From a virus (lineage: Duplodnaviria; Caudoviricetes), in IMG/VR virus record IMGVR_UViG_3300025637_000039, positions 1 through 30,936 of that record: DNA of 30,936 nucleotides, one strand, 5' to 3'. The notes under the pieces were generated by a model that worked only from the letters and a program-made list of their open reading frames with translations, was not told the origin of the DNA and did not search any database. Every line of letters begins with the position of its first letter. Position 1 is the stretch's first letter. Positions 9,152 through 28,625 of this stretch are shown here, piece by piece. Position numbers and translations under genes: made by a program.

Positions 9152-10090
9152 ATGGCTATAAACGTAGATTTAGTTTATAAAACTGTGTTGCTAATACTTA
9201 ATCAGCAACAAAGAGGGTACATAACTCCAGACGAATTTAATAAAGTTGGTAATCAAGTTCAGTTAGGTATATTTGAAAAATATATGAGCGATCTTAACCA
9301 GCAACTACGTATACCAGAAAACGATAGCGAATATGCTAACAGAGTAAAAAATCTAGAAGAAAAACTAGATATTTTTAAAAGAATAGGTACAGCAACTTTT
9401 GCTACGCCTTATTTTAACTTACCAACAACTTCCACTACTGCAACATCTACTCAAACATTTACAGTACCGGCTTTACCAAATCCAGCTACAAATACAATAT
9501 ATAATGTAACTAACTGGTCTCCTTCACAATCACAAAATGCTTTAATTAAAGTTTTTAAAAATGGAGTACTACAAACATCTCCAGCACAATATTCTTTTAA
9601 CACAACATCAAATAACATAACTTTTGTTACTGCTCCTGCTATTAATGATATTATAATAGCGGAATTATATCCATCTGATTTTTACAGACTAGGTACAGTT
9701 ATATACAAAAATGATACCTTAGTTCAAATGGTAGAACGTAATGAATTTTATTTAATTCAAAGATCGCCATTAACAGCGGCTACAAAAGTTCAGCCTATAT
9801 TTTTATATGAAGATGAAAAGCTACAAGTTTTTCCTACAACTATAACTTCTGATATCAGTGTTTCTTATATAAAGAAACCTAATCAACCACAATGGGGATA
9901 TTCTATTGGATCTTTAGGTCAATTCTTATATAATCCATCATCATCTACAAATTTTGAACTTCATGTATCAGAGCAAGTAGATCTAATAACAGGTATATTA
10001 TTGTACTCAGGAGTTATAATACAAGATCCTACTATAATACAAGTAGCATCGCAACAAATACAACAAGAAGACATAAACGAAAAATCATAA
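9152..10090 (+). CDS. Tail ring / head-tail adaptor protein with an inserted small beta domain
   Basis: 312 aa. N-terminus VDLVYKTVLLILNQQQRGYITPDEFN and C-terminal YIKKPNQPQW...FELH fit crAss-like ring/P22 gp4-like proteins. Confidence 0.6.
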   Translation: MAINVDLVYKTVLLILNQQQRGYITPDEFNKVGNQVQLGIFEKYMSDLNQQLRIPENDSEYANRVKNLEEKLDIFKRIGTATFATPYFNLPTTSTTATSTQTFTVPALPNPATNTIYNVTNWSPSQSQNALIKVFKNGVLQTSPAQYSFNTTSNNITFVTAPAINDIIIAELYPSDFYRLGTVIYKNDTLVQMVERNEFYLIQRSPLTAATKVQPIFLYEDEKLQVFPTTITSDISVSYIKKPNQPQWGYSIGSLGQFLYNPSSSTNFELHVSEQVDLITGILLYSGVIIQDPTIIQVASQQIQQEDINEKS

Positions 10091-11314: not shown

Positions 11315-14300
11315 ATGGCTGAAGTTAAAAATACTTTTCTTAAGGGGAAAATGAACCAAGATCTTGACTCTCGTATTGTGCCTAATGGTGAATATAGAGA
11401 AGCTAGAAACTTATCTATAAGTAGATCAGAAGGGTCTACAGTGGGTGAGTTTGAAAATGTTTTAGGTAATATAGCTATATCTAGTTTAACCTCTATAGGA
11501 GCGCCTGCTACAACAGAAATAATTGGTAAACTTATTGATGAGAATTCAAACATGGCTTACTTTATGGCTACTGATTGGAATCCAGGTGATGAATCTAGGG
11601 CTCCAGGAACAGCTAAGTGTTATATAGTAAGTGTAGACCTGTCTTCAACAAACCCCCCTTTAATACTGGTTCAAGGTAGTTTTTTAAATTTTAATCAAGG
11701 GTACATAATAACTGGTATAAATTTAATTGAAAATTTATTGTTTTGGACAGACAATTTAAACCAACCAAGAAAAATAAATGTTTCTTTAGCAACTAGTAAT
11801 TCATCTCATTACACAACAGAAGATCAAATATCTGTAGCTAAATATGCTCCCTTTGAGCCAATACTAGCTATGGAGAGGGTGCAAACAACTTTAAATGGGG
11901 ACGTTACAGCTTCCGATACTATAGTTGTAGCAGATTCTACCGGTATAAAAGTAGGTGATATTGTTACTGATAAAGTAAAACTTGGTGCACAACAAATATT
12001 AGAATTAGTTACAGTTATAGGAAAACCTGCTGTAGATCCGCTAGCTATTCCTCCTGTTGCAGCAAACACATTAACATTATCTATTCCTGTTACTATAATA
12101 GATGGTACTCCTTTAGATTTCAGCAGACCTTCTATGACTAATAAGAATAGATTATTTATGTCTAATCATTCTTCAGGTGCTGTAACAATTATTCCTTCTC
12201 CGGCTTTACCAACACCTAATCCAATAACAGCTGTATACACTATAAGCGCAACCGGAGCTGATGTTGATTTTTTATACAGCGGTAATAACGGAATACCTAA
12301 AGTAGGTGATTTAGTTAGTGGGCCAGGAATAGATCCTGATACTAGAGTTTCTTTTGTTGAGGTGCTAGACAATGACGCGGTCACACCTTCACAATCTATA
12401 TCTATAAAACTAAATAAAGAAACTACAACTGCTGATTCAGATGTTATATCAATAAGCGATAACCCTGATTATGACGCTAATTGGAAAGGTGATGAAAATT
12501 TTTTAGAGGATAAGTTTGTAAGGTTTAGTTATAGGTTTAAATTTGAAGATAACGAATATTCTTTAATGGCGCCTTTTAGCCAACCTATGTTTATACCAAA
12601 ACAATACAGTCAATTTGGCGGAGGCTTGTTATCTCCTACAGAAGATATGGATGACGCTTATAAATCTACTATAGTTGCTTGGTTTGAAAATAACATAAAC
12701 AATATATTGCTAAGAATTCCAGTAATGGAAGATACACCAGAAAATTTAATCAGTAACTTTAAAATAACAGATATTGATATATTATATAAAGAGTCTGACG
12801 CTTTAGCGGTAAAAGTACTTGAAACAGTACAATTGTCTAATCCATCACCTACCTTTTCCTCAATAGCATTTCACGATGCTATTCACGGTATAAATACTAA
12901 ATACTTTTTAGACTACGATTATAGCTCTACGAAGCCATATAAAACATTACCCAGCAATCAAGTAACTAGGGTATCAGATAGAGTTCCAGTAAGAGCTCTT
13001 GCTCAAGAAGTTATAGGTAACAGAATAGTTTATGGAAATTACTTAGACAGACACACGGGGCCGAACTCAATAGCTTTTAGCGCAAACGCTAGTAACAAAT
13101 CTATAAAGTTTGATAATTATACTCAATTCCCAAAACATCAATTAAAACAAAACAGAACGTATCAAGTAGGCTTTGTACTTTCAGACAGATACGGTAGACA
13201 ATCAGATGTTATTTTATCATCTTATGACAATGTTCCGGGCATATCGGGATCTACTGTTTTTAATCCTTACAATAACTTAGCCGAGCAAACCGCTACCCCA
13301 ATTTTAGATTGGCTAGGAGATGCTTTAGTAGTTACTTTAAATGAAGCTGTACAGTCAACCTACAATCCAGCTACAGGAACTCCTGGTATATATTCTATTG
13401 ATAATCCTTTAGGTTGGTTTTCTTACAAAATAGTAGTAAAGCAAACAGAACAAGAATATTATAATGTTTATTTACCTGGTTTTGTTAACGGCTATCCTGT
13501 TACTGAAAATAATGAAAGAAATAAAAGTTTTTTCACAACTCTTTTAGGTGACAATGTAAATAAAATACCTAGAAATCTAAAGGAAGTAGGCCCTAATGAT
13601 AGAGATTTCGGAAGTGATGAAGGTCTATATATTAGAGTTAATAATCCGCTTATAAATAATAAAAGCGGTGCAATATATCCAAAAACTGAAGCATGGAACG
13701 CTCAGTACTATCCAGCTGGAATAGAGCAAGAGGTTATACAAATAGCTACAGTCAGAGACATGGAAATACAAGCTATACCTTTCAAGCCAGACGCGCAAAA
13801 AGGAGAGTATGGAGAATCTAAGATATTAAGTGTCTATGAGTATGAGAATCCTCCTTACGGCGGTGCTATATCAGGTGTAAATGAAACACCTGAACCTACA
13901 GGTTCTATACCTTGGGGAACTTCAGGACCAGATGCACCTTTATACAGTGCAGATTCAAATCCTTTTGTTATGAAAGGCAATCAATCAGAAAATATAAATA
14001 ATCCAATAGGTGCTTATGTTACTACCTTCTCTGTAAACGCTCCGCCCCCGCCTCCTGATCGTCCTGTATTTTCTATGGTACCTTTCTTATCCGTAGCTGA
14101 AACAGAGCCAGTTGAATCTTTATTAGATATATTTTTTGAAACGTCGTTATCTGGAAATTTAGCAGAATTAAATGCTTTAGTTGATTCTGAGTATGGAGGA
14201 TTAACAAGTTCTAATTTTGCAGCTGCTGACTTTTTTGAAAATGCAGCAATTTCAACTATAGTAGGAACACCTTTCCAGTTTTTAGACGGCGCAGGGACTG

Positions 14301-15511
14301 CTATAAATGCTTCTCTTGTTAATATAGATAGTATAAGTATAATAGATGGAAATAATATAGCTTCAGATCCTAATAACCTTCCTTTTACGATAACACAAAA
14401 CGGAACAAGTTTTGAAATTAAAACTAACACTACATTTTTTTATGATACCACTGTAGATTTAGGTTATACAGGCGTATATACTATAACAGCTAACACAACT
14501 TATACTAGTGGTGCTGGAACTTTTCCTGACACTATAATATTACCAAAGATATCGTTAAAAAATTCAGCTCCTGTAATAAGTGCATTTACACAACCTACAA
14601 ATAGAACAACGCAAGCAAACCAAATTATAATAAATACATTAGCAGCTGTAAACGGTAGCGCAAAAACAAGTGTTAATACTCGAGAATTAGCATGGTCATT
14701 AGATCCGAGTAGAACAGATTTTTCTATAGATGAAAATACAGGTGATTTAACTTCTACTGAAGAATTAATTGACGATACGCTTTACAATGTGATAGTCAAG
14801 GTAACTGATCTTAATGGTAATGGCTCACCTAATGAGTTATCAGATACAGCAACCGTAACTTTCCAAGTTGGAGAACCTAGAGTAAACAGAGCTTTATGTG
14901 AAGGAAGCGGAGGGGCTTCGTTTACACCGATTACTACTTGTGGAGATAATTTACAAGTCCAATTTTTAAAGAGTAGCACGCTAGTTAATTTGGGGCCGCA
15001 AACGGTAGTAGGTCCGTCGAAAACAGTAACATATCCAGCTACAAGTAAAATAGACGGAAACATTTATAATGTACTTGCTAAAAATGATGGAAGTGCATCA
15101 TTGCCTCCGGTAACACATACAACAGGAGCTCTGGAACAAGGAGCGGTGGCTATAACATGTACTCTTACTAATGCAGGCGGTAGTGCAGGGCAAGAAGATG
15201 ATATTATTGGATTTACGATCCAATATAAACCTATTGGATCTGGTAGCTGGAGTCAAGCTACTGAGCTTATAGGTGGAGAACAAGAGTTTGTATACAACGA
15301 AGAATTACAAGTAGGAGTTGATGCTGCTGTTTCTATAACAAAGATTTTTAATGTTGCTGGAGAATATAGGGTTTTAACCACAACAATAACTGGTGGCCAA
15401 TGCTCTTTAGGTCCTCCAGATGATCAATTCACTAAGTTTACAGTTGATTTTGAAGATGCGAATTATCCTAGATCAAATCCGAGTAATTCATGTACTGATG
15501 CTCCGTTGTAA
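11315..15511 (+). CDS. Tail stabilisation (muzzle/nozzle-like) protein, N-terminal part, with inserted domains and a C-terminal cadherin/Ig-like region
   Basis: 1398 aa. Motifs typical of crAss-like stabilisation proteins: GKMNQDLDSR...EYREARN...ENVLGN, LLFWTDNLNQPRKIN, FSYRFKFEDNEYS, AQEVIGNRIVYGNY and NRTYQVGFVLSDRYGRQS. Confidence 0.7.
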   Translation: MAEVKNTFLKGKMNQDLDSRIVPNGEYREARNLSISRSEGSTVGEFENVLGNIAISSLTSIGAPATTEIIGKLIDENSNMAYFMATDWNPGDESRAPGTAKCYIVSVDLSSTNPPLILVQGSFLNFNQGYIITGINLIENLLFWTDNLNQPRKINVSLATSNSSHYTTEDQISVAKYAPFEPILAMERVQTTLNGDVTASDTIVVADSTGIKVGDIVTDKVKLGAQQILELVTVIGKPAVDPLAIPPVAANTLTLSIPVTIIDGTPLDFSRPSMTNKNRLFMSNHSSGAVTIIPSPALPTPNPITAVYTISATGADVDFLYSGNNGIPKVGDLVSGPGIDPDTRVSFVEVLDNDAVTPSQSISIKLNKETTTADSDVISISDNPDYDANWKGDENFLEDKFVRFSYRFKFEDNEYSLMAPFSQPMFIPKQYSQFGGGLLSPTEDMDDAYKSTIVAWFENNINNILLRIPVMEDTPENLISNFKITDIDILYKESDALAVKVLETVQLSNPSPTFSSIAFHDAIHGINTKYFLDYDYSSTKPYKTLPSNQVTRVSDRVPVRALAQEVIGNRIVYGNYLDRHTGPNSIAFSANASNKSIKFDNYTQFPKHQLKQNRTYQVGFVLSDRYGRQSDVILSSYDNVPGISGSTVFNPYNNLAEQTATPILDWLGDALVVTLNEAVQSTYNPATGTPGIYSIDNPLGWFSYKIVVKQTEQEYYNVYLPGFVNGYPVTENNERNKSFFTTLLGDNVNKIPRNLKEVGPNDRDFGSDEGLYIRVNNPLINNKSGAIYPKTEAWNAQYYPAGIEQEVIQIATVRDMEIQAIPFKPDAQKGEYGESKILSVYEYENPPYGGAISGVNETPEPTGSIPWGTSGPDAPLYSADSNPFVMKGNQSENINNPIGAYVTTFSVNAPPPPPDRPVFSMVPFLSVAETEPVESLLDIFFETSLSGNLAELNALVDSEYGGLTSSNFAAADFFENAAISTIVGTPFQFLDGAGTAINASLVNIDSISIIDGNNIASDPNNLPFTITQNGTSFEIKTNTTFFYDTTVDLGYTGVYTITANTTYTSGAGTFPDTIILPKISLKNSAPVISAFTQPTNRTTQANQIIINTLAAVNGSAKTSVNTRELAWSLDPSRTDFSIDENTGDLTSTEELIDDTLYNVIVKVTDLNGNGSPNELSDTATVTFQVGEPRVNRALCEGSGGASFTPITTCGDNLQVQFLKSSTLVNLGPQTVVGPSKTVTYPATSKIDGNIYNVLAKNDGSASLPPVTHTTGALEQGAVAITCTLTNAGGSAGQEDDIIGFTIQYKPIGSGSWSQATELIGGEQEFVYNEELQVGVDAAVSITKIFNVAGEYRVLTTTITGGQCSLGPPDDQFTKFTVDFEDANYPRSNPSNSCTDAPL

Positions 15512-15541: not shown

Positions 15542-17170
15542 ATGCCAATAACATTAGAAGTAGGATATTTTAACTCATTTTACATGAAGAGATTAGCTGA
15601 TCTTCCTATAGGTAATGGTGAAACAGGAGCTACAAATTATACAACTCCAACCACTAGCATAGTGCAAGAAGATTGGTATATAGAAGAGTCTAGAATACGA
15701 GGAGGTTATAATAATGTATCAACAGATTTAGGTGTAAAAGCTTATATCGTAGAAGATAACGATGCACAACAACGTAGAAAAAATTCATTAATATATTCAG
15801 GAGTATTTAATTCTAGAACAGGTGTAAACCAGTCTAATCAATTTAGTACAGCTGAAGAAACAACTAGAAGTGTTGATCCAGCCGGGGGAAGTATACAAAA
15901 GCTTTATGCTGAAGATACAAACTTAATAATATTTCAAGAGGATAAAGTAAACAGAGCTTTAATAGACAAAGATGCAATATATTCAGCAGAAGGATCTGCT
16001 ATAACAACTACAGCTAATTTAGTTATAGGTCAAATAGTCGCTTATGCTGGAGAATATGGAATATCAACTAACCCAGAATCTTTTGCTGTTTACGGATATC
16101 AAAAATATTTTGCTGATCGTAATAGAAACGCTGTATTAAGATTATCTAGAGATGGTATAACTGAAATATCTAACTACGGAATGATCGATTTCTTTAGAGA
16201 TAAGTTATCTTTAGTTGGAACAACTGGAAAAATAATAGGTTCTTACGATATATATAATAAAAATTACATAATATCTTTACAAGAAGCTAATAATAATAAT
16301 TACAATACACTAGGTTTTGAAGAAGCCACTAATGGTTGGATTAGTTTTTATGACTACAATCCAAGTAGCGGGTTTAGTTCGCAAGGTCAGTTTTTCACAA
16401 CCAACGGTACATCGGTATGGAAACACTATTCTACCGCTGTTAATAGAAGTAATTTTTACGGTACAGATAATAAGTCTTCTGTTAAACTAATATTAAATCC
16501 TGATCCTACAAGAGTAAAAACATTCAAGACAATAGACTATGAAGGCACGAGCGGATGGGAAGTTATATCTTTAATTTCAGATGATACAGGTACAGATTTT
16601 GTCAACGGAGTATGGGTTAATAATAGTGAGAAAGGAACTAGCACTGCTGATCCAGCAACTTTTACTATAACAAACGGTGGAAGCGGGTTTTATGTTACAG
16701 GTAACAATGTAGGTACTTCAACAGATGGATTTGGTGTTGGAATGAAAGTCAATATAGTTGTAGGCGGTGGCGGTGGTGTAAGCCAAATATCTATAATTGA
16801 TCCTGGATTTGGATATCAGCCAGGAGATGTGCAACAAATAGACATAAATAGCGGAAGCGCTATTGGAGTTTATGCTACATTTGTATTAGATACATATACT
16901 AACATATATAGTAGAATTTATAGTTACAATGAAGGTTTATATTTTGAAAGCAATATTCCTTATAGAGCTGGGTTTGATAGAAAACAAAACAGATATGTTG
17001 CCCCTATATTAAATAATTCACCAAACCCTTTACCTGGTCAAGTATTATCCGGACCTAGTAATACAGGTATAAAAGCTTATTATACAACAGTAACAATGCA
17101 AACAGATACTACTACAAATCCAGGTGGATTAAAAGAGTTGTTCGCAGTAGGATCAACATACGGAAGATAA
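15542..17170 (+). CDS. Tail stabilisation protein, C-terminal-like part (beta-propeller-type)
   Basis: 542 aa with IEESRIRGGYN, LIYSGVFNSRTGVN, GSIQKL and GEYGISTNPESFAVYG...YFADRNRNAVLRLSRDGITEIS, typical of the C-terminal half of P22 gp10-like/crAss muzzle proteins. Confidence 0.65.
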   Translation: MPITLEVGYFNSFYMKRLADLPIGNGETGATNYTTPTTSIVQEDWYIEESRIRGGYNNVSTDLGVKAYIVEDNDAQQRRKNSLIYSGVFNSRTGVNQSNQFSTAEETTRSVDPAGGSIQKLYAEDTNLIIFQEDKVNRALIDKDAIYSAEGSAITTTANLVIGQIVAYAGEYGISTNPESFAVYGYQKYFADRNRNAVLRLSRDGITEISNYGMIDFFRDKLSLVGTTGKIIGSYDIYNKNYIISLQEANNNNYNTLGFEEATNGWISFYDYNPSSGFSSQGQFFTTNGTSVWKHYSTAVNRSNFYGTDNKSSVKLILNPDPTRVKTFKTIDYEGTSGWEVISLISDDTGTDFVNGVWVNNSEKGTSTADPATFTITNGGSGFYVTGNNVGTSTDGFGVGMKVNIVVGGGGGVSQISIIDPGFGYQPGDVQQIDINSGSAIGVYATFVLDTYTNIYSRIYSYNEGLYFESNIPYRAGFDRKQNRYVAPILNNSPNPLPGQVLSGPSNTGIKAYYTTVTMQTDTTTNPGGLKELFAVGSTYGR

Positions 17171-17181
17171 AAACAAATAAC

Positions 17182-17958
17182 ATGATAGAATTTTTAGAAA
17201 TATTTTTATTTGGGCAAGGTAATGTCCAGCAAGCGCTTGTTCCAATAGGAGTTGCTATTGCGGGCGCTGCGCTTAATGTAATTGGCGGTATTATTGGAGG
17301 AGGTGCAGCTAAAAAAAGAGAAAGAGCAGCTAGAAGAGAAAAAGCGCGACTTACTAGAAAGTTAAATTATTTAGAAAACAACAGGCAAGCAATAATAAAC
17401 CCCGCGGACGGAGTTTCAAATTTAAGCGGGCTAGCGCAAGATTTAAGCGGACAATTAACAAATCCAATGGCTAACCTAAGTGTAGCAACACAAGCTGCTG
17501 AAATACAAATTGAACAAGCTGATATAGCACTAGCTAATACTTTGGACACTATAAGAGCAACAGGAGCAGGGGCTGGAGGAGCTACGGCTTTAGCGCAAGC
17601 GGCTTTAGCGAGCAAGAAAGGAGTTTCAGCAAATATAGAACAACAAGAAGCTCAAAATGAAAGACTAAGAGCTCAGGGAGAACAACAATTGCAACAGCAA
17701 AGAATGGCCGAACAACAAAGAGTTCAAGGTTTGCAAATCAGCGAAGGCGGTAGAGTGCAAGGAATGGAAATGCAAGGTAGACAATTTGAATTTCAAACAC
17801 AAGAAAACAGAGAAGATGCTAAATTAGATAGAGTTTCCACTCAACTAGCAGGAGCACAAGCAAGACAGGCTCAGGCAGCTTCAGACAGAACAGGAGCTAT
17901 TACAGGTGCAATTGGAGGCTTAACTTCTATTGCGGGTGCATATTACGGAGCAAAATGA
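17182..17958 (+). CDS. Putative internal virion / DNA ejection (pilot) protein
   Basis: 258 aa with G/A-rich hydrophobic segments at both ends (IGVAIAGAALNVIGGIIGGG; GAITGAIGGLTSIAGAYYG) and a Q-rich coiled coil, as in podovirus ejection proteins. Confidence 0.6.
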   Translation: MIEFLEIFLFGQGNVQQALVPIGVAIAGAALNVIGGIIGGGAAKKRERAARREKARLTRKLNYLENNRQAIINPADGVSNLSGLAQDLSGQLTNPMANLSVATQAAEIQIEQADIALANTLDTIRATGAGAGGATALAQAALASKKGVSANIEQQEAQNERLRAQGEQQLQQQRMAEQQRVQGLQISEGGRVQGMEMQGRQFEFQTQENREDAKLDRVSTQLAGAQARQAQAASDRTGAITGAIGGLTSIAGAYYGAK

Positions 17959-17975
17959 TCATAAAAAATTAAAAC

Positions 17976-19328
17976 ATGAGTTATAGAAATCCAAAACAAG
18001 TAGTAGACACACAATCAGGACAGTATGTTAGAGATATGCTTAAATCTGTTACTAGTTCAGCTGTTGGTGCAATAAAAGCACAGCAAGCAAAAGAGGAAAA
18101 AAGACAAAAAGAATTAAGGGAAAATGAAGAACAGAATATAGCTTTTTATAGAAAAACTATTCAAGCTCAAGCAAAAATAGCTAATAGCGCCAACGCAGAA
18201 GATGTTAAAAATAGTGGAACTGACTGGGCTAGTGCTATTATGGAAGGTATAGATGAGTATGGTGAATTATATATGAAGTCTCTTAAATATCCTTTACAAT
18301 TTTCAGCTGAAGATACTTTAAAAATGTCTTCTTTGGCTAATATGGGAACTCAAATTAAACGGCAAGCAGTAGAAGATCAAGCTGATATGGACACACTTCA
18401 AAGCGGTTTTGAAGCAGGGCCTGGTCAATATGGAGGGTTTGGTAAGTTTGTAAATAAAGATATTATAAAAAGATTAGCTATTCAGGGTAAACTAGGTGCA
18501 ACCCCTGGTAGCTCTGTTGGTTCATTCTATAATGACCCAAAAACAGGTGGGTTAATGACTAAAGTTACGTCTTATGATGCGGATGGAAACAAAATAGGTA
18601 CTAATGCTAACGGAGGGAATATAACGGATTATATAGTACCTAATCCCACTGAAAACATGCAAAGTATTAAAGCAGCTGTTAAACAAAGAAATGATGATTA
18701 CTTTAAAGATCAAAAAATTCAATCAAATTTTAATAAGGATACAAAGGAAACCATTAAGTCACAATTTCCTAACAGAGCTGCATTGATAGCTGATATTAGA
18801 GCTTTATCTGACGGTTATATTGAAGGTTTAGGAGCAAATTCAGCTATAAGATTGCGTAATAATAAAATGCTGGGCTATATTAAAGACGAAAACGGAAAAA
18901 CTGTAAAAGATCCTTCCATAATAGATCCTGACAAAGCTATGTGGGATATGGATAAGCAAGGTAATGTAATAGACCCACAACTTAAGCAAATTAAAATAGC
19001 GTATGCAGAAATGTTAATAGATGAAATGGGATTAGGAAAAGATGAAAAAATTGTTGCTAGAATAAAAGAAACATCGAAAGAAAAAACCCCTTACCAAAAA
19101 GCTATAGACAAGCTAGCTCCTAAAATTAAAGTATCAGCAAAAGACACGTGGGTACTTAAAGGTGAAGGGGATAATAGATATTATGAATTACCTCCTCCAA
19201 GGGACTCCAACAACATGGATATAGGAAAATCTAAAAAAGTAAATGTGTTTTTGTTTGATGATAGTGGTAAAAACATAGGTAAAAACATACTTGGAATGAG
19301 GTCTGAAATGGTTACAGTTACAGACTAA
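17976..19328 (+). CDS. Putative internal virion protein
   Basis: 450 aa starting MSYRNPKQVVD with an N-terminal coiled coil, located between the pilot-like protein and the giant protein. Confidence 0.5.
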   Translation: MSYRNPKQVVDTQSGQYVRDMLKSVTSSAVGAIKAQQAKEEKRQKELRENEEQNIAFYRKTIQAQAKIANSANAEDVKNSGTDWASAIMEGIDEYGELYMKSLKYPLQFSAEDTLKMSSLANMGTQIKRQAVEDQADMDTLQSGFEAGPGQYGGFGKFVNKDIIKRLAIQGKLGATPGSSVGSFYNDPKTGGLMTKVTSYDADGNKIGTNANGGNITDYIVPNPTENMQSIKAAVKQRNDDYFKDQKIQSNFNKDTKETIKSQFPNRAALIADIRALSDGYIEGLGANSAIRLRNNKMLGYIKDENGKTVKDPSIIDPDKAMWDMDKQGNVIDPQLKQIKIAYAEMLIDEMGLGKDEKIVARIKETSKEKTPYQKAIDKLAPKIKVSAKDTWVLKGEGDNRYYELPPPRDSNNMDIGKSKKVNVFLFDDSGKNIGKNILGMRSEMVTVTD

Positions 19329-19364: not shown

Positions 19365-22300
19365 ATGTATACAAATCAACAAGGTAATAAAGTAAGCGTT
19401 GAAGAAATGCAAAATCTAGCCCAAGAAGCTGGGGTAAGCGTTGAAGTTTATGCTAAAGCAGCAGGGTACTCACTGCAGTCAGAAGACGTTACAAAAGATC
19501 CTGAACCTAAAATAAAAGACGCCGATTTGCTTGATCCAACTTTTCAAAAAGACGCTGCAGCGGATGCAGATGTGGTGTCTCAACCAATGACAGCATCACA
19601 AGCGGAGTATGTAGAACCAGAAGATACGGAATCACAATCGGTAGATACTTCTTTGGATTCACCAGATCCTGCACCTAGATTTATAGAGTTTAAAGGTAAA
19701 GGAGATAGACCTGGCGCTATAGTATATGAAGACACTTATTTAGAAACTAAAGCAGGCCAGCCAGGGTATCCAGATACTTTTGATGAATATGCCGCTGCTT
19801 TTAACACAACACCGCAAAGTTCAAGTACTGAAGAAATAGCTATTAAAGCTACTTCAAATGAAAAAGTTTTTGAAAGTTTAAATAATTCATTTAAAGGCAT
19901 AGACTTAAGTGAAAAAACAAGTAGTTTTGATCTTAACCCAGGCAATACTAAAATATATAATCAAGAAGAAGAGGTTGTCAGGCCAACACTTAACCAGCTA
20001 TTTGAAGGCTCTGGAGTTGATTTTGAAGAAATTGATATAGTACAAGAGGGTGATGTAAATGCAGTGCTTGGAAGCGAAGCTTTAAGAGCTAGAATTAAAA
20101 ACCCTGAAACAGGGGAATATATATATTCAGAAATCTTAGAATTGGAATCTGATGGGTCTTTCATGAACAACGATAAAATTGAAAAATTTTTAGATGAAAA
20201 TAAATCATATTTAGATCTACCTAAGTGGACTAGGTCTAAAAATAAAATGATCGCAAAGTACAAGCAATGGAAAAATAGCGAATTAGACCCTATAATAAAT
20301 AAAGCAAGAGTTGAAGCGGAACAAGCATATATAGTCAACCCAGATCTTTTTAAACCTTACGATAAAAAAATATTTGTAGGAGGATTTAATACCAGTACTA
20401 CTGTTACAGAAACAATCAACCCTTACCAAAAAGAAATAGCTCAAGAAATAAATAGGCTAGAAAGAAAAGGTGTCAAAGAAAACTTAGAAGCACAAGCAAA
20501 AATAAACGTAAGACAAAATTTAAAACAAGCTGATATAAACGAAGCAATACGCGAAACCAGAGCTAAATTTATAAATGCATCTTCTAACACAGAAAAAGCT
20601 CAAGCATTTTTATACGCTAGCGAAACCTTTGTTAAGAAAGAGGAAGCTAAAGCTTATAATAAAAATAATGAAGAGGCTCAAATAGCTAAAGAAGGAGCGA
20701 ATAAATATCAAAAGCAACAACAGGCTGCTGTAGATGTTTTTAGCGCAACTCCTAGCGAAAATCAAAGTGTTGATGATTTTATTACTCAACAAAAAAATAA
20801 ACTGCAACCTATAATAGACGAGCTAAATATAGAAATACCTGAAGATACTAAGGAAAAAATAAATAGCCCAAAGTTAAACATGCTTCTTGGTTTAGACGAA
20901 GAGGTTTTGTTACCTAAAAGTTTTTATAATATAATGATGGCTTTAGAAGACGCAAAAAATGCGAACATAAGCAATTATAATGATAAAAGAATCAAAATGG
21001 CTGAAAGCATAGGCGACATATCAGATATTGATGTTGCGATGGAAGCTACTGCTAAAAATTACGAGCTTGTAGAAAAATACGCTGTAAACGCTGGGCTAGG
21101 TTTTCAAGATATTGTTGTAAACACAACAATGCTTGGATTAAATATATTATCATTAGGGCAAAGTGAAAAGGTAGCTCAACTGGGATCAGATTACGTTGAA
21201 TACACAAAAGAAATTAGAGATTCGTATCAAAGAGATGTTTCTTTTGATGAAGCTTTTTCTACACCTGGAAATACAGGTAAATTTATAGCGCAAGAAGTAG
21301 CAAATCAATTACCTATATTTTTAGCTATGGCTGCTTCTGGAGGTTCTGCCGCTTATGTAATTGGAGCATCTAGTGCTGGAGGCAAGATGATGGATATGCA
21401 AAATGAAATAGCTACAGGTACAGCCGAGTATTCTCCTATTAAATTATGGGCAACAAGTTTAGGCTACGGTTTAGCAGAAGGTCTTTTTGCTCAAGTAACT
21501 ACAGTACCTATTTTAAAAAGAGCTAAGCTTAATTGGATGAATAACGGTAAGGAGTCTGTTGTTAATAATTCCATGAGGGAATACGCAAAAACCCAATATA
21601 AAGGACTTATATATGAGCCTATTTTAGAAGCCTCAGGTGAAGCTGCAACGGTTGGAGTACAGAATCTGATAGACGGTAAACCTTTTATGCAAGGCATGGA
21701 CCACGCGAGTACCTCAGGTTTAGCTTTTGGTTTTGCTTTTGCGGCAATACCATTTCTTAAAGGAATGTACAATTCTCAGTTTTCTACCTATGAAACTAGA
21801 AGTGAAATTAGAACCATGCAAAATGAGTTAGATGGTTTAAACAAAAAGTTAAACCTAAACTTGTTTGCAAATTCCAATTTATCTGATAAAAGTAAGTCTA
21901 TTTTAAAAGGGAAACAGGATTTACTAAAACAATCTATTGAAGAAAAAAGTATTCAGCTTGCAGATAAAATTAAGCAGCAAGAAGTAATTGTAACTAATAA
22001 TTTAACAGAAGGCGCAAAAAACGAAGTAGTAAAAATTATAAACAAACAGGCTGAATTAGAAAATATAGCAATAGAAATTCAAAAAAACCCTAATATAAGC
22101 AACAAGGAAAGAGCTCAATTAATAGCTGAAGTAAAATCACAATACGATGTTGCGGTTAAAGCAAGAAACGAAGCGGTTAAAGATGAAACCATGCTTAAGA
22201 ATGGTACAGAATGGGCTGCTTTTAAAGGGTTAAATAGATCTGAATCTCAGGAATATTTAGACACCGCAGACGCTATGTTGTCTGGTGAAAGAAACGGTAA

Positions 22301-25300
22301 GCAAGCAAGTAAAGAAGATATAAATGATAGAGCTTATGATCTTTATTTTGGAGATAAAATTAGAGTAGAAAACAAAAAACTAGGTAGAAGTAATTCAAGT
22401 CTGTTTAAAAACTTTAAATCTTTAGAAACTATAGATGAAGCTATAGTTGAAGTTAATAATGACGATACAATTGATTCTGAAGATAAAAAGAAAATAATAT
22501 TAAAGCTAAAAAACGGCAATGATGGCTATTGGAATCCAGCTAGTGGTACCATGATTGCTATTGTTGAAAACCAAGTAAAAAATCAAAGAAAGTATATTAA
22601 AACACATGAAGTAGGTCACAAGGCTTTTGAAATGTTATTAGGCAATCCTAAAAACAATGCTGCCTTTAAAGGTATAAGTGATCAACTTTTGTCAACTTTA
22701 AAAGCTACAGATAGAAAAACTTACGATAAATTTATAAAAGACGGTATTGATGATGATGCGGGAAATATAGATCCTACGGAAGTAATATCTAGATTCATGG
22801 AATATGTTGCTGATGATCAGATAACAAATGTACAAAAAGCAAAAGGTATTTCTGGTCTTTTTGGTGTTATGATTCAAAAAACATTTGGTAGCGATTATAA
22901 ATTTGATTTTAGAGGAGAGCAAGATATATTTAATTTTGTTGTTGGATTAGGAAAAAAATTAAAAGACGGTACTCTAACTACAGCTGATATTAAGAAAGCT
23001 AAAGAAAGTAAAGTTATAAAAGATTTACCTACTTCTGATACAACAACAGACGTTGATAAAAAAGTTAGCTTTAGTAAAGCAAGTTTACAAACTGAGTTAA
23101 ATACTTTGAAAGAAAATGAATTTGACTATGACCCAGAACAGTTTCAATCTCTTGTAAGCAACTTAGAAACAAAAATAAGAATTGCTGGAAAAAAAGAAGC
23201 CGCTAAGCCAAAACCTAAGACATTAGGATTTGATACTAGTGAAGAATCGGTAATAGGTCAAATAAATAATTTAGTACCTAAAGAAATTACAACCAACAAA
23301 GAATACAAGGAAAATAAAAAAGTACAAAACGAAATAGACAAAGCATTTAAGCCTAATGGTATTATTAGCAATATTATCAAAGGTAGATTTGGTGGAGGGG
23401 ATTTGTTTATTGAAACATTGAATAGTGTTAAAAACAGAGCGGTAAGATATGATCCTGCAGCAGAAAGAAAAAAAGCAGGCAATAACGATCCTGTTACTTT
23501 TGCTGAATTTATTTTTTCTAATGTAAACTTTAGTAAGTTAGATGCTGCTAAAAAACTAGCTATAAAAGCGGCGGATCAAAAAAAGAAAACAGACCTTGAT
23601 AATAAAGAGGCTCAAGGTAAAACAACAGAAGAAGATTCTGGACCAACAGCAGATACTAGAAAAAAATATAAGCCATTAATTTCAAATCCTAAATTAATAC
23701 CTAGTTTTATATCTAGTGAAATTAAAACAAAGCTTGCAAATGTAGCAAGTAAATTAAAATCAAAATTATCAGACAGACCTAAAGGTAAAAATGCGCAAAC
23801 GACTCCATTAGTAGCAGAAATTAAAAAAGCTATTGGGAATGTTGTTAAAGATCCAAAAGCTTTACCTAAGCAGATAATAAATCGCATGGGTAATCCTAAA
23901 GATGGATCATATCAAAAGTTTTTAATAGATAATAAAAAATCTATTTTAGAGAACATGACAACCACTTATCTGCAATCGGCTATACCTGCGGCTATAGAAA
24001 AATCTGTTGGAGGTACTTATGCTTTAGATAGTGATGGTAAAAGAAAAAAAGACAGCAACGGTAATGATATTTTTAAACCAAAGTTTGTTCCTTATCCAGA
24101 ATGGGTAGGTAAAGAAATTGACCGTGAAAAAGTTTCTACTAATAAAAAAGGAGGAACATCTGGTAATCAAATAGTTAGAAGAGCTATTCAAAAAGAAGTA
24201 GATGGCAGGTTTGAAGACAGCATTACTGACGAAGATTTTGTAGCAAATTTTGTTGGAAGTGATGGAAAAGTTATACGCGGTAAAAGAGAATCACTAGGAA
24301 AAGCATTAGCAGAAGAAGCTGGATTTGAGGTTTTTGTTTCAGAATTAAAAAACGATAAAGTAGTTACTCAGAAAGATTTAGACGAAGACGTAATCGGACA
24401 GTTTGAAGGCAAGCAAGCCGGGGATTTTGTTAGCGATGTAAGACAAGAATTCAAAGATAATCAGGAAGCTTTGGGAGAAATCTTAGGAGATAATACTGTA
24501 GCTTTAGTGTCGAGAGATATTGAAAGAGGCACGGTTAAATTTAGCAAAGGTAAAAGACAAGCGCTTACAGAAATAGCTAATGCTAGGTCAAGTAAGAAAG
24601 TTAATGAAATTATTGGTATAGAAAAACAAGCTATAAACAATAAAAACAGAGTACAAAAACAAAAAGATTTTGAAAAGATAATAATAAAATACAATTTATC
24701 ATTAGAAGCTTTTGATGGTGGTGCTTTAAAAAATTCAGGAGCTATAAGAACTAGACCTGGCAAATCAGGAGCTGATGCTAATAAATTAAACAAATGGCTG
24801 GCAGCTAATCCCAAAGTAAAATTTTCGCCAAATCAAGTTTGGTACGCTTTAAGTAATGGTGATTGGATAAAAGCAGGAACTAAGTATAATAAAGCAAAAA
24901 ACATTACTACAATTCAAATTCCCACGCTTGAAGCTATTGCTAAAGTTGGTGATGGAAATGCAACATTAGTGGCTAATACTAATAGATTGTACTACGGATC
25001 GTCTGATCCAGCTTATATTGCTGCTAGAAAATTAGCCGCTAAAAATTCAGTAGACGCTTCTGTGTACAAAACAGGTAGAGTTACTACAGACTTTTTTGGA
25101 GTAAAAGCAATTGAAAAGTTTAAACAGAACATGCTACTTATGGAAAGGGTTGCTTATGAACTACAGGATGCTGTAGCGGGTGGTATGCCTAAGGAAATTG
25201 CTGCAATGATTATCGAAGGAGGGTACCAAGCAACTTCTGGTTTTATAAAAATAGCAGCAGGTTTTAAGTATAAATCAAAAGTTTTTGAATATGCTTTGTC

Positions 25301-28300
25301 TGGAAAACCAAATCAAACAAGAGGTAAAAAATATAGAGAAGAACACAATCCACCTGCTTCAACAGTAGGAGGAACTTTGTTGTGGGCTATAGTTAATAAT
25401 CAGGTAGGAGATGTAATGCCTTATGTTAAAAAGAATTACTATCAAACTCAATTATCAGTTAAAGATGATGCTAAAATTGATGACGCTGGATTAGACGGAA
25501 CTTTACCTGAGGGATATAGCTTGCTTAATGATCCAGTAATACGTTTAATAAAATCAGGCATTGGGTTAAGTTCTTTAATAGATCCAAACACAGGTTTAAG
25601 TATGGCTCAAGAGTACGGTGTTAAAGTAGACGATTCTGCTTTGCAACTTCAGCCAGACGTTATAGAAAAGCAAGGTGAACTGGTAGAAAGACAATTAACA
25701 GATCCTAAGTTTACTAAGAAAGATTCTCAAAAATTTATTGATCAATTCATTAAGCTAGCGCCTGCGTTGAACAAGGCAAACATTATAAACAATAAAAAAT
25801 TAGCATATCCTTTTAAAGAAAAAGTAACCAGTAAAAAATTACTTGATAGGTCAAACACTATTCAAAAAGCAATTAATAACGGTAGATCCGTTAGTTTTTC
25901 TAGTGCGCCTAAAAAAATACGTGTATTTGATTTTGATGATACTTTAGCTAGAACTAATAGTAATGTACTATATACAATGCCGGATGGCACAGAAGGCTCT
26001 ATAGATGCCGCCACGTTTGCAAAAGACGCGAGCATGATGCAAGCTGAAGGCGCTATATTTGATTTTAGTGAATTTAGCAAGGTTATGGATGGTAAAAAAG
26101 GCCCATTGTTTGAAGTAGCTAAAAAAATAGCGCAAGCTAGAGGTACTAAAGATGTGTTTGTTTTAACTGCTAGGCCTCAAGATGCTGCAGGTCCTATACA
26201 GGAATTTTTAGCTGAACTTGGTTTAGATATTCCATTAGAAAATATTACCGGTTTAGCTGATGGTGATCCTAAGGCAAAAGCTAATTGGATGGTTGGTAAA
26301 GTAGCTGAAGGTTATAATGATTTTTACTTTGCTGATGATCATTTAGGAAATGTCAAAGCTGTTAAAGATGTATTTAATACTTTCGATGTGAAAGGTAAAG
26401 TGCAACAAGCTAAGATTAAATTCAGTAAAGGTTTAGACAAGGGCTTTAATGATATGATTGAGCGTCAAACTGGTACAGAGTCTTTTAAAGAGTTTTCTAA
26501 AGGGGTAGCGCAAAGAAGAGGTAAGAAAGTTGGTAAGTTTAAAATATTTGTTTCGCCTTCAGCTGAAGACTTTAGAGGATTAACCCAGTATAAGTTTGCA
26601 GGTAAAGGTAAGCAAGGTGAAGCTGATCAAAAATTCTTTGAAGAAGCATTGATGGATCCTTATTTTAAAGGTGTTGCTGCAGTAGAAGCCGCAAGAGAAA
26701 CAATAAAGAACGACACTAAAGCTCTTTTTAAAATATTTAAACCTGTTAAAAAGAAATTAAACAAGCTAGTTCCAGGTATTGATTTTACTTATGACGGTGC
26801 TGTTCGTGTTTATCTTTGGAACAAAGCAGGTATAGAAATACCAGGTCTTACTAAGAGAGATAACAAAAAATTAAATGACGTTGTAGCAAATGATCCTGAG
26901 CTTAGTGCTTTTGCAGATGCTTTATTATTGGTATCCAAGCAAGACACGTGGCCTGCGCCTACTGAATACTGGGAAGCAAAAACAACCTTAAGTGATTTAA
27001 ACACATTAACTGAAAAAACAAATAGAAAAGAATATTTAAAAGAGTTTATTGAAAACGTTGATATAATATTTAGTGAAAAGAATCTAAATAAAGTGGAGGC
27101 ATTGTACGGTAAAGCATCAAGAACTGCTATTGAAAACGCTATATACGCTATGAAGACAGGTAGCAATAGCCCTAATCAAAACGGAGATGTTATAACAAAC
27201 AGATGGCTAAAGTGGGTTAATAACTCTATAGGTACGATAATGTTTTTTAACAGAAGATCAGCTTTGTTACAATTAACTTCTGTTACAAACTTTTTAAATT
27301 GGTCAGATAATAATCTAGCTAAAGCAGCATTGGCATTTGCTAATCAACCGCAATACTGGAAAGATTGGGCTATGATATTCAATTCGGATAAATTAAAACA
27401 ACGTAGAAGTGGTTTAAAATCTGATGTACAAGAATCTGAAATAGCTAATGCAGCTAAAAACACGGAAGATAAAATAGGTTCAATTATAGCTTATCTGTTA
27501 AAAATAGGTTTTTCACCAACACAAATAGCGGATAGTATTGCTATATCTTCAGGTGGTGCTACTTTTTATAGAAATAGAGTTAATACTTATAAAAAGCAAG
27601 GTTTAGATGTAAAAGAAGCAGAAACAAAAGCTTTTGAAGATATGAGTAAGCTTTCTGACGAATCACAGCAATCAGGTGATCCTGCTTTAGTGTCTCAACA
27701 ACAGCGAAGCGTTGCGGGACGTCTTATATTATCTTTTCAGAACACGACTATGCAATACACTAGGTTAATGAAAAAATCTGGTCAGGATCTTATAAACAGA
27801 CGTGGGGACCCAAAGACTCATATATCTAGGATACTATATTATGGAGCTTTGATGAATTTTATATTTAACGCACTGTCTCAGACTGCATTTGCATTAATAC
27901 CTGGTTTTGATGAGGAAGAAGAGGAAGATAAAGTTAAAAGAGATGAAAAACTTGAAGAAAAAGCATCTAGAGTTTTAAATGGTATGGCAGATTCTATTAT
28001 CAGAGGTACTGGTATATACGGGGCTGTTGTCACTACTTTAAAAAATACATTCAATACTTGGAAAAGAGAAGCTGATAAAGGTTTTAAAGGTGATCAAGCT
28101 AAGACGCTTCTTGAAGCAGCTAACATATCTCCGGCTATAGGATCTAAACTTAGAAAAATATACTCAGCAATACAGGCTTACCAATTTGACAAAGCAGTAA
28201 TGGAGAAACACCCATGGAGCGTGACTATAGACGGTAAGTTTAATCCTTCTGCAACATATAGTGTAATTGGGAATGTAGCGTCAGCAACTCTTAATTTACC

Positions 28301-28625
28301 TTTAGATAGAGCTTTAGCAGAAGCTAGAGGTGTGGCTGAAATGTTTGACAATAGAAATAGTGAAATGCAAAGAATAGCATTAGCTCTAGGGTGGAGAACT
28401 TGGAATGTTGGTGCTAAAAATGAGGAGTTTGATCTTATAAAAATGGAAGCTAAGCAAGCTAAGAAAGATAAAAAAGCAGAAGAAAAAGCGCAATATAAAG
28501 CTTATTTAAGAAGAGTTGGATCAAAATTAAGCTTAGAAGAAGCTAACGCTTATAGAAGAATCAAAAGCGCTAAGTTGAAAAAAGAATACATATTAAAAAT
28601 AGGTGAAGAAAAAGGTATAAAATAA
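19365..28625 (+). CDS. Giant (3086 aa) multidomain virion/ejection protein with zincin protease and HAD phosphatase domains
   Basis: Uninterrupted ORF. HEVGH at 22605-22619. HAD motifs DFDDT (25929), LTAR (26163), K, and FADD (26328). The helical C-terminal region resembles large internal virion proteins. Confidence 0.8.
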   Translation: MYTNQQGNKVSVEEMQNLAQEAGVSVEVYAKAAGYSLQSEDVTKDPEPKIKDADLLDPTFQKDAAADADVVSQPMTASQAEYVEPEDTESQSVDTSLDSPDPAPRFIEFKGKGDRPGAIVYEDTYLETKAGQPGYPDTFDEYAAAFNTTPQSSSTEEIAIKATSNEKVFESLNNSFKGIDLSEKTSSFDLNPGNTKIYNQEEEVVRPTLNQLFEGSGVDFEEIDIVQEGDVNAVLGSEALRARIKNPETGEYIYSEILELESDGSFMNNDKIEKFLDENKSYLDLPKWTRSKNKMIAKYKQWKNSELDPIINKARVEAEQAYIVNPDLFKPYDKKIFVGGFNTSTTVTETINPYQKEIAQEINRLERKGVKENLEAQAKINVRQNLKQADINEAIRETRAKFINASSNTEKAQAFLYASETFVKKEEAKAYNKNNEEAQIAKEGANKYQKQQQAAVDVFSATPSENQSVDDFITQQKNKLQPIIDELNIEIPEDTKEKINSPKLNMLLGLDEEVLLPKSFYNIMMALEDAKNANISNYNDKRIKMAESIGDISDIDVAMEATAKNYELVEKYAVNAGLGFQDIVVNTTMLGLNILSLGQSEKVAQLGSDYVEYTKEIRDSYQRDVSFDEAFSTPGNTGKFIAQEVANQLPIFLAMAASGGSAAYVIGASSAGGKMMDMQNEIATGTAEYSPIKLWATSLGYGLAEGLFAQVTTVPILKRAKLNWMNNGKESVVNNSMREYAKTQYKGLIYEPILEASGEAATVGVQNLIDGKPFMQGMDHASTSGLAFGFAFAAIPFLKGMYNSQFSTYETRSEIRTMQNELDGLNKKLNLNLFANSNLSDKSKSILKGKQDLLKQSIEEKSIQLADKIKQQEVIVTNNLTEGAKNEVVKIINKQAELENIAIEIQKNPNISNKERAQLIAEVKSQYDVAVKARNEAVKDETMLKNGTEWAAFKGLNRSESQEYLDTADAMLSGERNGKQASKEDINDRAYDLYFGDKIRVENKKLGRSNSSLFKNFKSLETIDEAIVEVNNDDTIDSEDKKKIILKLKNGNDGYWNPASGTMIAIVENQVKNQRKYIKTHEVGHKAFEMLLGNPKNNAAFKGISDQLLSTLKATDRKTYDKFIKDGIDDDAGNIDPTEVISRFMEYVADDQITNVQKAKGISGLFGVMIQKTFGSDYKFDFRGEQDIFNFVVGLGKKLKDGTLTTADIKKAKESKVIKDLPTSDTTTDVDKKVSFSKASLQTELNTLKENEFDYDPEQFQSLVSNLETKIRIAGKKEAAKPKPKTLGFDTSEESVIGQINNLVPKEITTNKEYKENKKVQNEIDKAFKPNGIISNIIKGRFGGGDLFIETLNSVKNRAVRYDPAAERKKAGNNDPVTFAEFIFSNVNFSKLDAAKKLAIKAADQKKKTDLDNKEAQGKTTEEDSGPTADTRKKYKPLISNPKLIPSFISSEIKTKLANVASKLKSKLSDRPKGKNAQTTPLVAEIKKAIGNVVKDPKALPKQIINRMGNPKDGSYQKFLIDNKKSILENMTTTYLQSAIPAAIEKSVGGTYALDSDGKRKKDSNGNDIFKPKFVPYPEWVGKEIDREKVSTNKKGGTSGNQIVRRAIQKEVDGRFEDSITDEDFVANFVGSDGKVIRGKRESLGKALAEEAGFEVFVSELKNDKVVTQKDLDEDVIGQFEGKQAGDFVSDVRQEFKDNQEALGEILGDNTVALVSRDIERGTVKFSKGKRQALTEIANARSSKKVNEIIGIEKQAINNKNRVQKQKDFEKIIIKYNLSLEAFDGGALKNSGAIRTRPGKSGADANKLNKWLAANPKVKFSPNQVWYALSNGDWIKAGTKYNKAKNITTIQIPTLEAIAKVGDGNATLVANTNRLYYGSSDPAYIAARKLAAKNSVDASVYKTGRVTTDFFGVKAIEKFKQNMLLMERVAYELQDAVAGGMPKEIAAMIIEGGYQATSGFIKIAAGFKYKSKVFEYALSGKPNQTRGKKYREEHNPPASTVGGTLLWAIVNNQVGDVMPYVKKNYYQTQLSVKDDAKIDDAGLDGTLPEGYSLLNDPVIRLIKSGIGLSSLIDPNTGLSMAQEYGVKVDDSALQLQPDVIEKQGELVERQLTDPKFTKKDSQKFIDQFIKLAPALNKANIINNKKLAYPFKEKVTSKKLLDRSNTIQKAINNGRSVSFSSAPKKIRVFDFDDTLARTNSNVLYTMPDGTEGSIDAATFAKDASMMQAEGAIFDFSEFSKVMDGKKGPLFEVAKKIAQARGTKDVFVLTARPQDAAGPIQEFLAELGLDIPLENITGLADGDPKAKANWMVGKVAEGYNDFYFADDHLGNVKAVKDVFNTFDVKGKVQQAKIKFSKGLDKGFNDMIERQTGTESFKEFSKGVAQRRGKKVGKFKIFVSPSAEDFRGLTQYKFAGKGKQGEADQKFFEEALMDPYFKGVAAVEAARETIKNDTKALFKIFKPVKKKLNKLVPGIDFTYDGAVRVYLWNKAGIEIPGLTKRDNKKLNDVVANDPELSAFADALLLVSKQDTWPAPTEYWEAKTTLSDLNTLTEKTNRKEYLKEFIENVDIIFSEKNLNKVEALYGKASRTAIENAIYAMKTGSNSPNQNGDVITNRWLKWVNNSIGTIMFFNRRSALLQLTSVTNFLNWSDNNLAKAALAFANQPQYWKDWAMIFNSDKLKQRRSGLKSDVQESEIANAAKNTEDKIGSIIAYLLKIGFSPTQIADSIAISSGGATFYRNRVNTYKKQGLDVKEAETKAFEDMSKLSDESQQSGDPALVSQQQRSVAGRLILSFQNTTMQYTRLMKKSGQDLINRRGDPKTHISRILYYGALMNFIFNALSQTAFALIPGFDEEEEEDKVKRDEKLEEKASRVLNGMADSIIRGTGIYGAVVTTLKNTFNTWKREADKGFKGDQAKTLLEAANISPAIGSKLRKIYSAIQAYQFDKAVMEKHPWSVTIDGKFNPSATYSVIGNVASATLNLPLDRALAEARGVAEMFDNRNSEMQRIALALGWRTWNVGAKNEEFDLIKMEAKQAKKDKKAEEKAQYKAYLRRVGSKLSLEEANAYRRIKSAKLKKEYILKIGEEKGIK
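19538..19678 (+). other. Candidate programmed -1 ribosomal frameshift signal and transframe segment
   Basis: A_ACT_TTT, then a 6-nt spacer, then a 9-bp stem (19551-19559 with 19571-19579) whose loop GATGC can pair with GCATC at 19593-19597. The -1 frame is open from 19535 to TAG at 19676-19678. Confidence 0.5.

Follow-up and report, generated by a model that had tools for sequence, protein, structure and literature searches.

The window, by which we mean the whole 30,936-nucleotide stretch analysed here, carries in order the genes for a terminase, a portal, a capsid protein, a crAss-type muzzle (two ORFs), two mid-sized proteins, a giant protein, an M15 endolysin and a ribonucleotide reductase. 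It is a structural (head-to-tail) module of a marine podophage, kin of the Pachyviridae and Pervagoviridae. The best-matching named terminases are those of MW202828 (64%), elemoviruses (45%), Pachyviridae (31-38%) and Pervagoviridae (35%), and in these named phages the genes follow one another as in the window, the last being a giant gene, annotated as structural in most. The sequencing runs containing the stretch are marine. The muzzle domains match PF25731/PF25729, and phrog_14478 is matched by the two ORFs in turn, its N-terminal part by 11315-15511 and its C-terminal part by 15542-17170; in phi38:1 and an elemovirus the muzzle's place is annotated as one long gene. No tail tube or tape-measure match was found among the 17 window ORFs scanned. 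An ORF of 150-170 aa lies between the muzzle and 258-aa genes, at ~9500-10000, in L015, L020, L021, L030, L034 and others and is absent from the window; a counterpart, L105:35892-36302, is annotated as an acetyltransferase in MW202828.

The giant gene follows two genes that are likely part of the same ejection cluster. Its translation, read by eye, contains an HExxH motif near residue 1080 (window 22600-22620) and a HAD-type FDFDDTL near residue 2188, the latter in a phosphatase-like HAD stretch (residues 2183-2365, window 25920-26460) with one weak phrog_415 match. We considered a virion RNA polymerase and rejected it, as the D[FYW]DxD motif is absent from the giant; 31 kb of the genome was covered. 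We infer that the giant is an ejection or polyvalent-type cargo protein. Like the polyvalent proteins of Iyer et al. 2017 (PMC5512222), it appears to be a giant multi-domain protein encoded beside virion genes with a metallopeptidase-like HExxH, a likeness drawn from the eye-read motifs; the word "frameshift" does not occur in that paper's main text. Harreka_1 was unrelated in the stretch compared.

The features of the locus are as follows.

17182-19328, + strand: two upstream genes (258 and 450 aa), in the same order in relatives and isolates; synteny anchors
19365-28625, + strand: giant 3086-aa virion gene, zero-frame product; an ORF, third gene after the muzzle genes, with isolate equivalents annotated as structural
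19365-19475, + strand: N-terminal mini-domain common to the giant and the predicted short product (AlphaFold2, 36 relatives)
19535-19678, + strand: -1 frame of 47 codons plus TAG (open 19535-19675, TAG 19676-19678), predicted to code for a 44-residue tail
19538-19544, + strand: slippery site A_ACU_UUU (U_UUU tetramer 19541-19544), non-canonical, in the phase of the 3086-aa ORF
19545-19550, + strand: spacer of 5-6 nt (5-7 nt in 57 of 61 pseudoknot-bearing relatives)
19550-19580, + strand: predicted pseudoknot stem 1 (19550-19559 with 19571-19580); compensatory changes in 4 of 9 counted pairs in 29 sequences
19563-19597, + strand: predicted pseudoknot stem 2 (19563-19567 with 19593-19597); 90% of cells paired, two-sided change in 2 of 5 pairs
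19625-19657, + strand: conserved 11-mer YG[IF]x[IFLA]G[RKS][YW]F[FI]G in the -1 frame; codon-level conservation, predicted beta-hairpin core

A first-pass annotation of this DNA had proposed a pseudoknot-stimulated -1 frameshift near the start of the giant gene, and its coordinates for the heptamer, spacer and both stems all hold. It had called the heptamer non-canonical, which is correct; A_ACU_UUU is a weaker variant at the position of A_AAU_UUU and G_GAU_UUU in the nearest relatives. Stem 1 as proposed (19551-19559/19571-19579) has 9 bp, three of them G-U, and reaches 10 bp with 19550/19580 added. The -1 frame is indeed free of stops for 47 codons (19535-19675), the longest of the giant's 461 -1 runs (the next is 36); an open run of 43 codons occurs by chance in the +1 frame elsewhere in the gene. 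Nor does the frame contain an ATG, as had been stated; with no Met present, an internal start was rejected. The earlier suggestion that codons in the span avoid creating -1 stops also stands: none of the 12 GA/AA/AG codons there (11 Asp/Glu, 1 Lys) follows a T, compared with 40% of 1103 such codons elsewhere in the giant. Under random synonymous recoding the -1 frame stays open in 1 of 2000 trials, and a pseudoknot score of at least 34, the window's value, is reached in 33 of 2000. A shift here would join 60 zero-frame to 44 -1-frame residues, giving a predicted product of 104 residues, in agreement with the length of about 104 first put forward.

By itself, the window is modest evidence for this cassette. 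Folding of the region is no better than that of shuffles (z=0.21), and ViennaRNA, a program without pseudoknot modelling, gives a competing fold of two hairpins a lower energy (-16.1 kcal/mol) than stem 1 (-11.2) or stem 2 (-4.4), each scored separately. The case for the cassette rests on comparative data. Rfam returned two chance-level matches only. Two of the window's G-U pairs become Watson-Crick pairs in variant contigs from sea-water runs (19573, 19574). Contigs from RNA libraries (X6, X14) are identical to the window across the site; such contigs reveal neither transcription nor rare slippage. Sea-water run depth is highest over the cassette (window 19500-19670), the most conserved DNA within the 1.5 kb examined, because contigs of other phages share that DNA.

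Signal and tail across relatives

Relatives were chosen without regard to the motif: the muzzle C-terminal gene served to retrieve 80 of 97 loci, and the 258-aa gene to retrieve 80 of 492. The start of the giant is reached in 118 loci, which, with the window added and 14 near-copies removed, gave 105 non-redundant starts; among them, the ORF at L079 is wrongly assigned and was scored as a miss. The anchor gene pattern is estimated to occur in about 1400 viral and 7700 metagenome stretches, and an anchor-gene search with MW202828 gave 2 loci only. A tail profile, built from 17 of 20 loci that had been found separately after 3 were excluded for overlap, matches the -1 frame within codons 1-160 in 67 of the 105 synteny-picked giant genes, window included, and matches nothing in frames 0 or +1 or in codons 161-480 of those genes. 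Stops in this part of the -1 frame of homologs would have spoken against a shift; instead, the open frame and its tail are kept in these 67. A clean 11-mer was obtained from 63 of them, followed by a hydrophobic residue in 63/63 and by a stop 3-6 residues past the motif in 55/63.

An in-phase slippery site with a downstream H-type pseudoknot is present in 61 of the 63 clean cases, in the layout first described for the window. The slippery sites are G_GGA_AAG (20), A_GTA_AAG (11), G_GAT_TTT (9), A_AAT_TTT (4), A_AAA_AAG, A_AAA_AAA and A_GCA_AAG (3 each), A_ACT_TTT (2) and six singles, with full heptamers at 41 and tetramers at 20 of the 61 relatives. The non-canonical label fits the window, and has to be amended for the family, whose usual sites are canonical heptamers or A_AAG tetramers. 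Both G_GGA_AAG and A_AAG are known shift sites, and pseudoknots are documented in bacterial -1 shifting, in passages of PMC5009743. The window's own clade mostly uses G_GAT_TTT, so we read its site as a derived variant that retains U_UUU. A_ACT_TTT occurs in 5 of the 57 fixed-geometry loci (the window, L006, L095, L254 and L334), with stems and tails intact.

Pseudoknot scores of at least 32 were reached by 51 of the 61 true sites and by 23 of 2282 control slippery sites, where the score of a true site is the best among several candidate sites per gene. A looser cut of 28 gives out-of-phase calls in 28-33 of the 105 genes and downstream calls in 14-25 of about 100. These relatives share ancestry and the counts are not independent events. 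In a swap test of position-defined 5' arms (42 different), pairing with the 3' region of the arm's own locus exceeded the mean over foreign 3' regions in 57/57. Covariation was scored in 29 sequences, the window's geometry subgroup of the 57, aligned without structure: 91.8% of cells are paired, against 15-52% for slid partners, and 6 of 14 pairs show two-sided change. None of 500 shuffles attains the paired fraction, in a test that kinship inflates. A covarying stem behind an in-phase slippery site, which the first reading had looked for in homologs, is therefore present. Together, the loci show a slippery site, a predicted 3' structure mostly 5-7 nt downstream, within the 5-9 nt expected of a frameshift signal, and an open -1 frame under selection.

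Codon usage across the motif bears on whether the -1 frame is translated. In the 63 clean 11-mers, each of the three Gly codons uses GGA, GGT, GGC and GGG. Gly 1 and 2 are invariant by construction, having been demanded by the search pattern; Gly 3, which the pattern left free, is present in 63/63. The zero-frame residues across the 11-mer interchange S/L, T/M and E/V/A/D/G, using codons that are rare in these genes (ACG 5%, TCG 3%, TTG 6%). Changes between nearest neighbours are 107 silent and 114 replacing in the -1 frame compared with 37 and 192 in the zero frame, and the mean column BLOSUM is 3.7 versus 1.0. Because the Gly wobble bases vary and the zero-frame residues swap freely, we consider the -1 frame to be under selection, and these codon patterns indicate selection of the amino-acid type, as for a translated protein.

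About a third of the relatives are without the cassette. With the set widened by metagenome loci, 39 of 138 relatives from several clades have neither motif nor signal; the tree was made by a quick method with isolates left out, and its five "Arun" labels are incidental runs. At about ten loci, among them L042, L055, L068, L075, L126, L129, L148, L169 and L184, the slippery site and pseudoknot are intact and the tail has diverged to other aromatic patterns. Since signal and motif are lost in several clades and the tail is divergent in about ten loci, the predicted short product is accessory and evolving. L216 and L246, both on IMGVR_UViG_3300046167_000634, are two full cassettes 37 kb apart, each starting a long ORF, and represent either two giant genes or a chimeric assembly.

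Loci with A9 or A10 runs

An independent set was picked by the 11-mer DNA pattern alone, which yielded at least 120 viral and 7 genome loci; among those listed, 2 were too short, and 103 were left without near-copies. Among the matches listed, 99 of 103 lie 40-130 codons downstream of a Met, and 46 have an in-phase slippery site and pseudoknot; the other phases gave 11 and 19, numbers partly shared by homopolymer sites. Among the remaining 57 listed, 42 have an A9 or A10 run 2-71 nt upstream, compared with 0 of 453 control windows. None of these 42 has a stop between run and motif, none reaches a pseudoknot score of 32, and the run ends in AAA in 36 and in AAG in 2. They carry the run of nine or more A that marks the slippage class, for which a 3' structure is not needed. 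Polymerases are known, from passages of PMC5009743, to slip on stretches of 9 A or T, and by analogy with dnaX polymerase slippage is likely in this class, although ribosomal slippage on A_AAA_AAA may act instead.

Isolates, cultured phi38:1 among them, fall here as well. In phi38:1 (A10, at about NC_021796.1:67520-67529), Calle_2, Gundel_1, elemoA and MW202828, A10-A11 lies at the site, and the open -1 frame that follows closes with a divergent stretch containing aromatic residues and Gly. In phi13:2, phi18:3, phi19:3 and phi46:3 the run is A9 between two annotated genes, and one added A would fuse both. The giant is annotated there as a short ORF followed by a long one (L108:25119-25400 for phi13:2, L190:6056, L191:5310 and L192:6119), with the junction one A under the family's A10 and a WFFG tail in the third frame. 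These split giants reflect either real slippage dependence or a shared homopolymer error; we take the four sequences to be of 454 origin, and no second record of their DNA was found. In L204, also of the A9 class, the zero frame stops 42 codons past the motif and resumes in another frame, which is either an error or a pseudogene.

The predicted 104-residue product

The first 37 residues, shared with the giant, are predicted by AlphaFold2 to fold as strand-strand-helix-helix-strand with a mean pLDDT of 89. Profile and fold searches gave no significant family or fold match for this domain: weak NikA-like (ribbon-helix-helix) matches occur in 6 of 36 relatives (best E 0.005), the best PDB Z is 2.6, the best viral match is an uncharacterised 1475-aa protein (E 0.034), and, in a check for homology to tail assembly chaperones, PF23812 is touched by 1 of 36 at a non-significant E of 0.043. 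Complex prediction for two copies scored 0.02. Among relatives, the cassette is preceded by several dissimilar N-terminal modules, a pattern consistent with a modular role that does not establish targeting.

In the tail, AlphaFold2 places strands at 26-33 and 36-43, with pLDDT about 80 there and 58 overall, so that the tail end is predicted to form a basic, aromatic beta-hairpin; the tail has 9 Lys/Arg and 1 acidic residue. Searches for homologs returned nothing real by tblastn in named phages, one chance match (E 0.22) for the tail profile against solved structures, none among 2887 candidate longer proteins, and none at E<=0.001 in a fold search with the hairpin. The ESM Atlas held no usable match to tail or N-domain. 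A Cys-rich stretch was considered as the functional core and rejected (CxC in 58 of 61 pseudoknot-class tails versus 0 of 42 listed A-run-class tails); we take the hairpin as the conserved unit, because the A-run class lacks the Cys-rich part, which overlaps with the stems. A resemblance of certain tails to the SecM arrest motif was also dismissed, since only 16 of 63 have Arg at the relevant position and Pro is absent. In about 25 rare database proteins (P0001-P0026), an N-domain and the tail share one reading frame. Ten of them were looked up, each forming a cluster with a single member and occurring on 1-2 contigs, and 4 others are single, so they may be indel errors and were not counted as support; P0014 and P0016 continue past the tail into giant-like sequence.

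Mechanism, role and known systems

The explanation we favour as a whole, and hold to be very probable, is that a programmed -1 shift at codon 60 gives a 104-residue protein; that this protein serves as an assembly adaptor is a weaker proposal. Ribosomes reaching codon 60 of the giant gene would be held up by the predicted pseudoknot, and some of them would slip back on U_UUU, read 44 codons in the -1 frame and stop. On the comparative sequence evidence, that the frameshift occurs at this site is highly likely. The short protein, having the giant's N-terminal mini-domain, would go where the N-terminus of the giant goes, its aromatic beta-hairpin would bind a conserved partner belonging to the head or the ejection apparatus, and the frameshift would set how much adaptor is made relative to the giant cargo, in the way of G/GT for lambda tails. 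Given the shift, we put the adaptor role itself at slightly under an even chance.

The first-pass annotation had the short product throttle the giant's copy number. Its -1 shift is supported, and throttling is in our judgement too small a role, because the tail appears to be under amino-acid selection and is kept where A9 or A10 replaces the pseudoknot. Any efficient shift would divert ribosomes and lower giant output, and the near-fixed stop 3-6 residues past the motif could suit a tail that is a degradation tag or nascent-chain signal; diversion needs merely a nearby -1 stop, however, yet 30-48 codons are kept open and the 11-mer is conserved despite a changed slippage signal, leaving this reading quite improbable. 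The predicted product joins a folded mini-domain to an aromatic hairpin and may thus well be a functional adaptor rather than a throttle alone. Such a protein might instead act on a membrane, ejected with the cargo or at lysis, into or onto the host envelope, as its basic tail and the hydrophobic residue after the motif in all 63 cases would allow; its neighbours, moreover, are likely ejection genes, which in crAss001 are envelope tunnel-formers according to passages of PMC10136315. The three fixed Gly and their fixed spacing resemble a binding surface more, the cassette is lost in many clades, and the predicted strands have 8 residues with a conserved core of 5-6. Eight-residue strands are short for a bilayer. 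We regard membrane action as unlikely, if still a credible competitor to the adaptor.

Two further readings concern whether the shift takes place in the window, or at all. The family may shift while the window's A_ACU_UUU has decayed and shifts little, since a P-site Thr re-pairs poorly following a -1 slip and the window has three G-U pairs and a competing fold. The recurrence of A_ACT_TTT in the fixed-geometry loci and the window's intact -1 frame and motif argue against decay, to which we give only a slim chance. Several columns of the 33-nt motif vary C/T only, like G-paired RNA, as expected if the motif worked purely as DNA or RNA, with no -1 translation. Variation nevertheless has a 3-nt periodicity in the -1 phase, Tyr and Trp interchange by two bases (TAC 25, TAT 8, TGG 20, TGC 1), and the motif is in frame with the upstream slip signal with no stops between, so that a pure nucleic-acid signal is scarcely believable.

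The frameshifted adaptor we favour has partial counterparts. Lambda gpG/gpGT are likewise two products with a common N-terminus, made at a fixed ratio from a morphogenesis module. Lambda uses G_GGA_AAG, the commonest slippery site in the window's family. In lambda, however, the shift lies near the 3' end and extends the protein, in a long-tailed phage and between its genes for the major tail and tape-measure proteins, whereas the cassette would shift near the 5' end (codon 60 of 3086) and truncate, with a pseudoknot, inside a giant ejection-type gene after the muzzle genes of a short-tailed phage. Gamma of dnaX ends almost at its shift. A -1 shift near the 5' end of E. coli copA also yields an N-terminal domain on its own, namely CopA(Z), 70 aa long, out of a large protein of 834 aa (passages of PMC5009743); that gene encodes a cellular copper transporter, and the phage cassette would add a conserved tail of 30-48 residues with its own motif. 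For dnaX, tau and gamma arise by ribosomal frameshifting in E. coli and by polymerase slippage on a run of 9 in Thermus thermophilus (passages of PMC5009743). One product pair made by two slippage routes is also what the pseudoknot and A9/A10 classes suggest, though there is no homology and polymerase slippage is our deduction for the phage class. Capsid and tail genes of T7, T3, A2 and A118 are phage structural genes with a -1 shift as well (passages of PMC5009743), but there a 3'-end shift adds a domain. Searches of mostly open-access literature, covering abstracts and passages of PMC5009743, PMC5512222, PMC13288928, PMC10136315 and PMC10028833, returned no description of the cassette. The cassette is apparently a real, widespread and so far undescribed recoding element.

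It is possible, and we advance it tentatively, that a sizeable group of aquatic Bacteroidota podophages hides a small structural or assembly protein at the start of the giant ejection gene. If so, one beta-hairpin tail is placed on interchangeable N-terminal modules by ribosome or RNA-polymerase slippage according to lineage, the giants of phi13:2, phi18:3, phi19:3 and phi46:3 may themselves need slippage, and a recoding-set ratio, a counterpart of G/GT, would control the loading of podovirus ejection cargo. How set numbers of huge ejection proteins are loaded into podovirus heads is, to our knowledge, poorly understood. The cassette suggests that a widespread group of phages makes a small protein, so far unannotated, in fixed proportion to that cargo. 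It further supplies natural frameshift pseudoknots from bacterial systems by the dozen, with slip sites that differ, and is likely a second case, after dnaX, of a product pair retained across a change between ribosomal and polymerase slippage. Public proteomes of phi38:1-infected cells and virions exist (PXD066074 / MSV000098485, described in passages of PMC13288928), and with cultured phi38:1 carrying the A10 form, the cassette is testable now.
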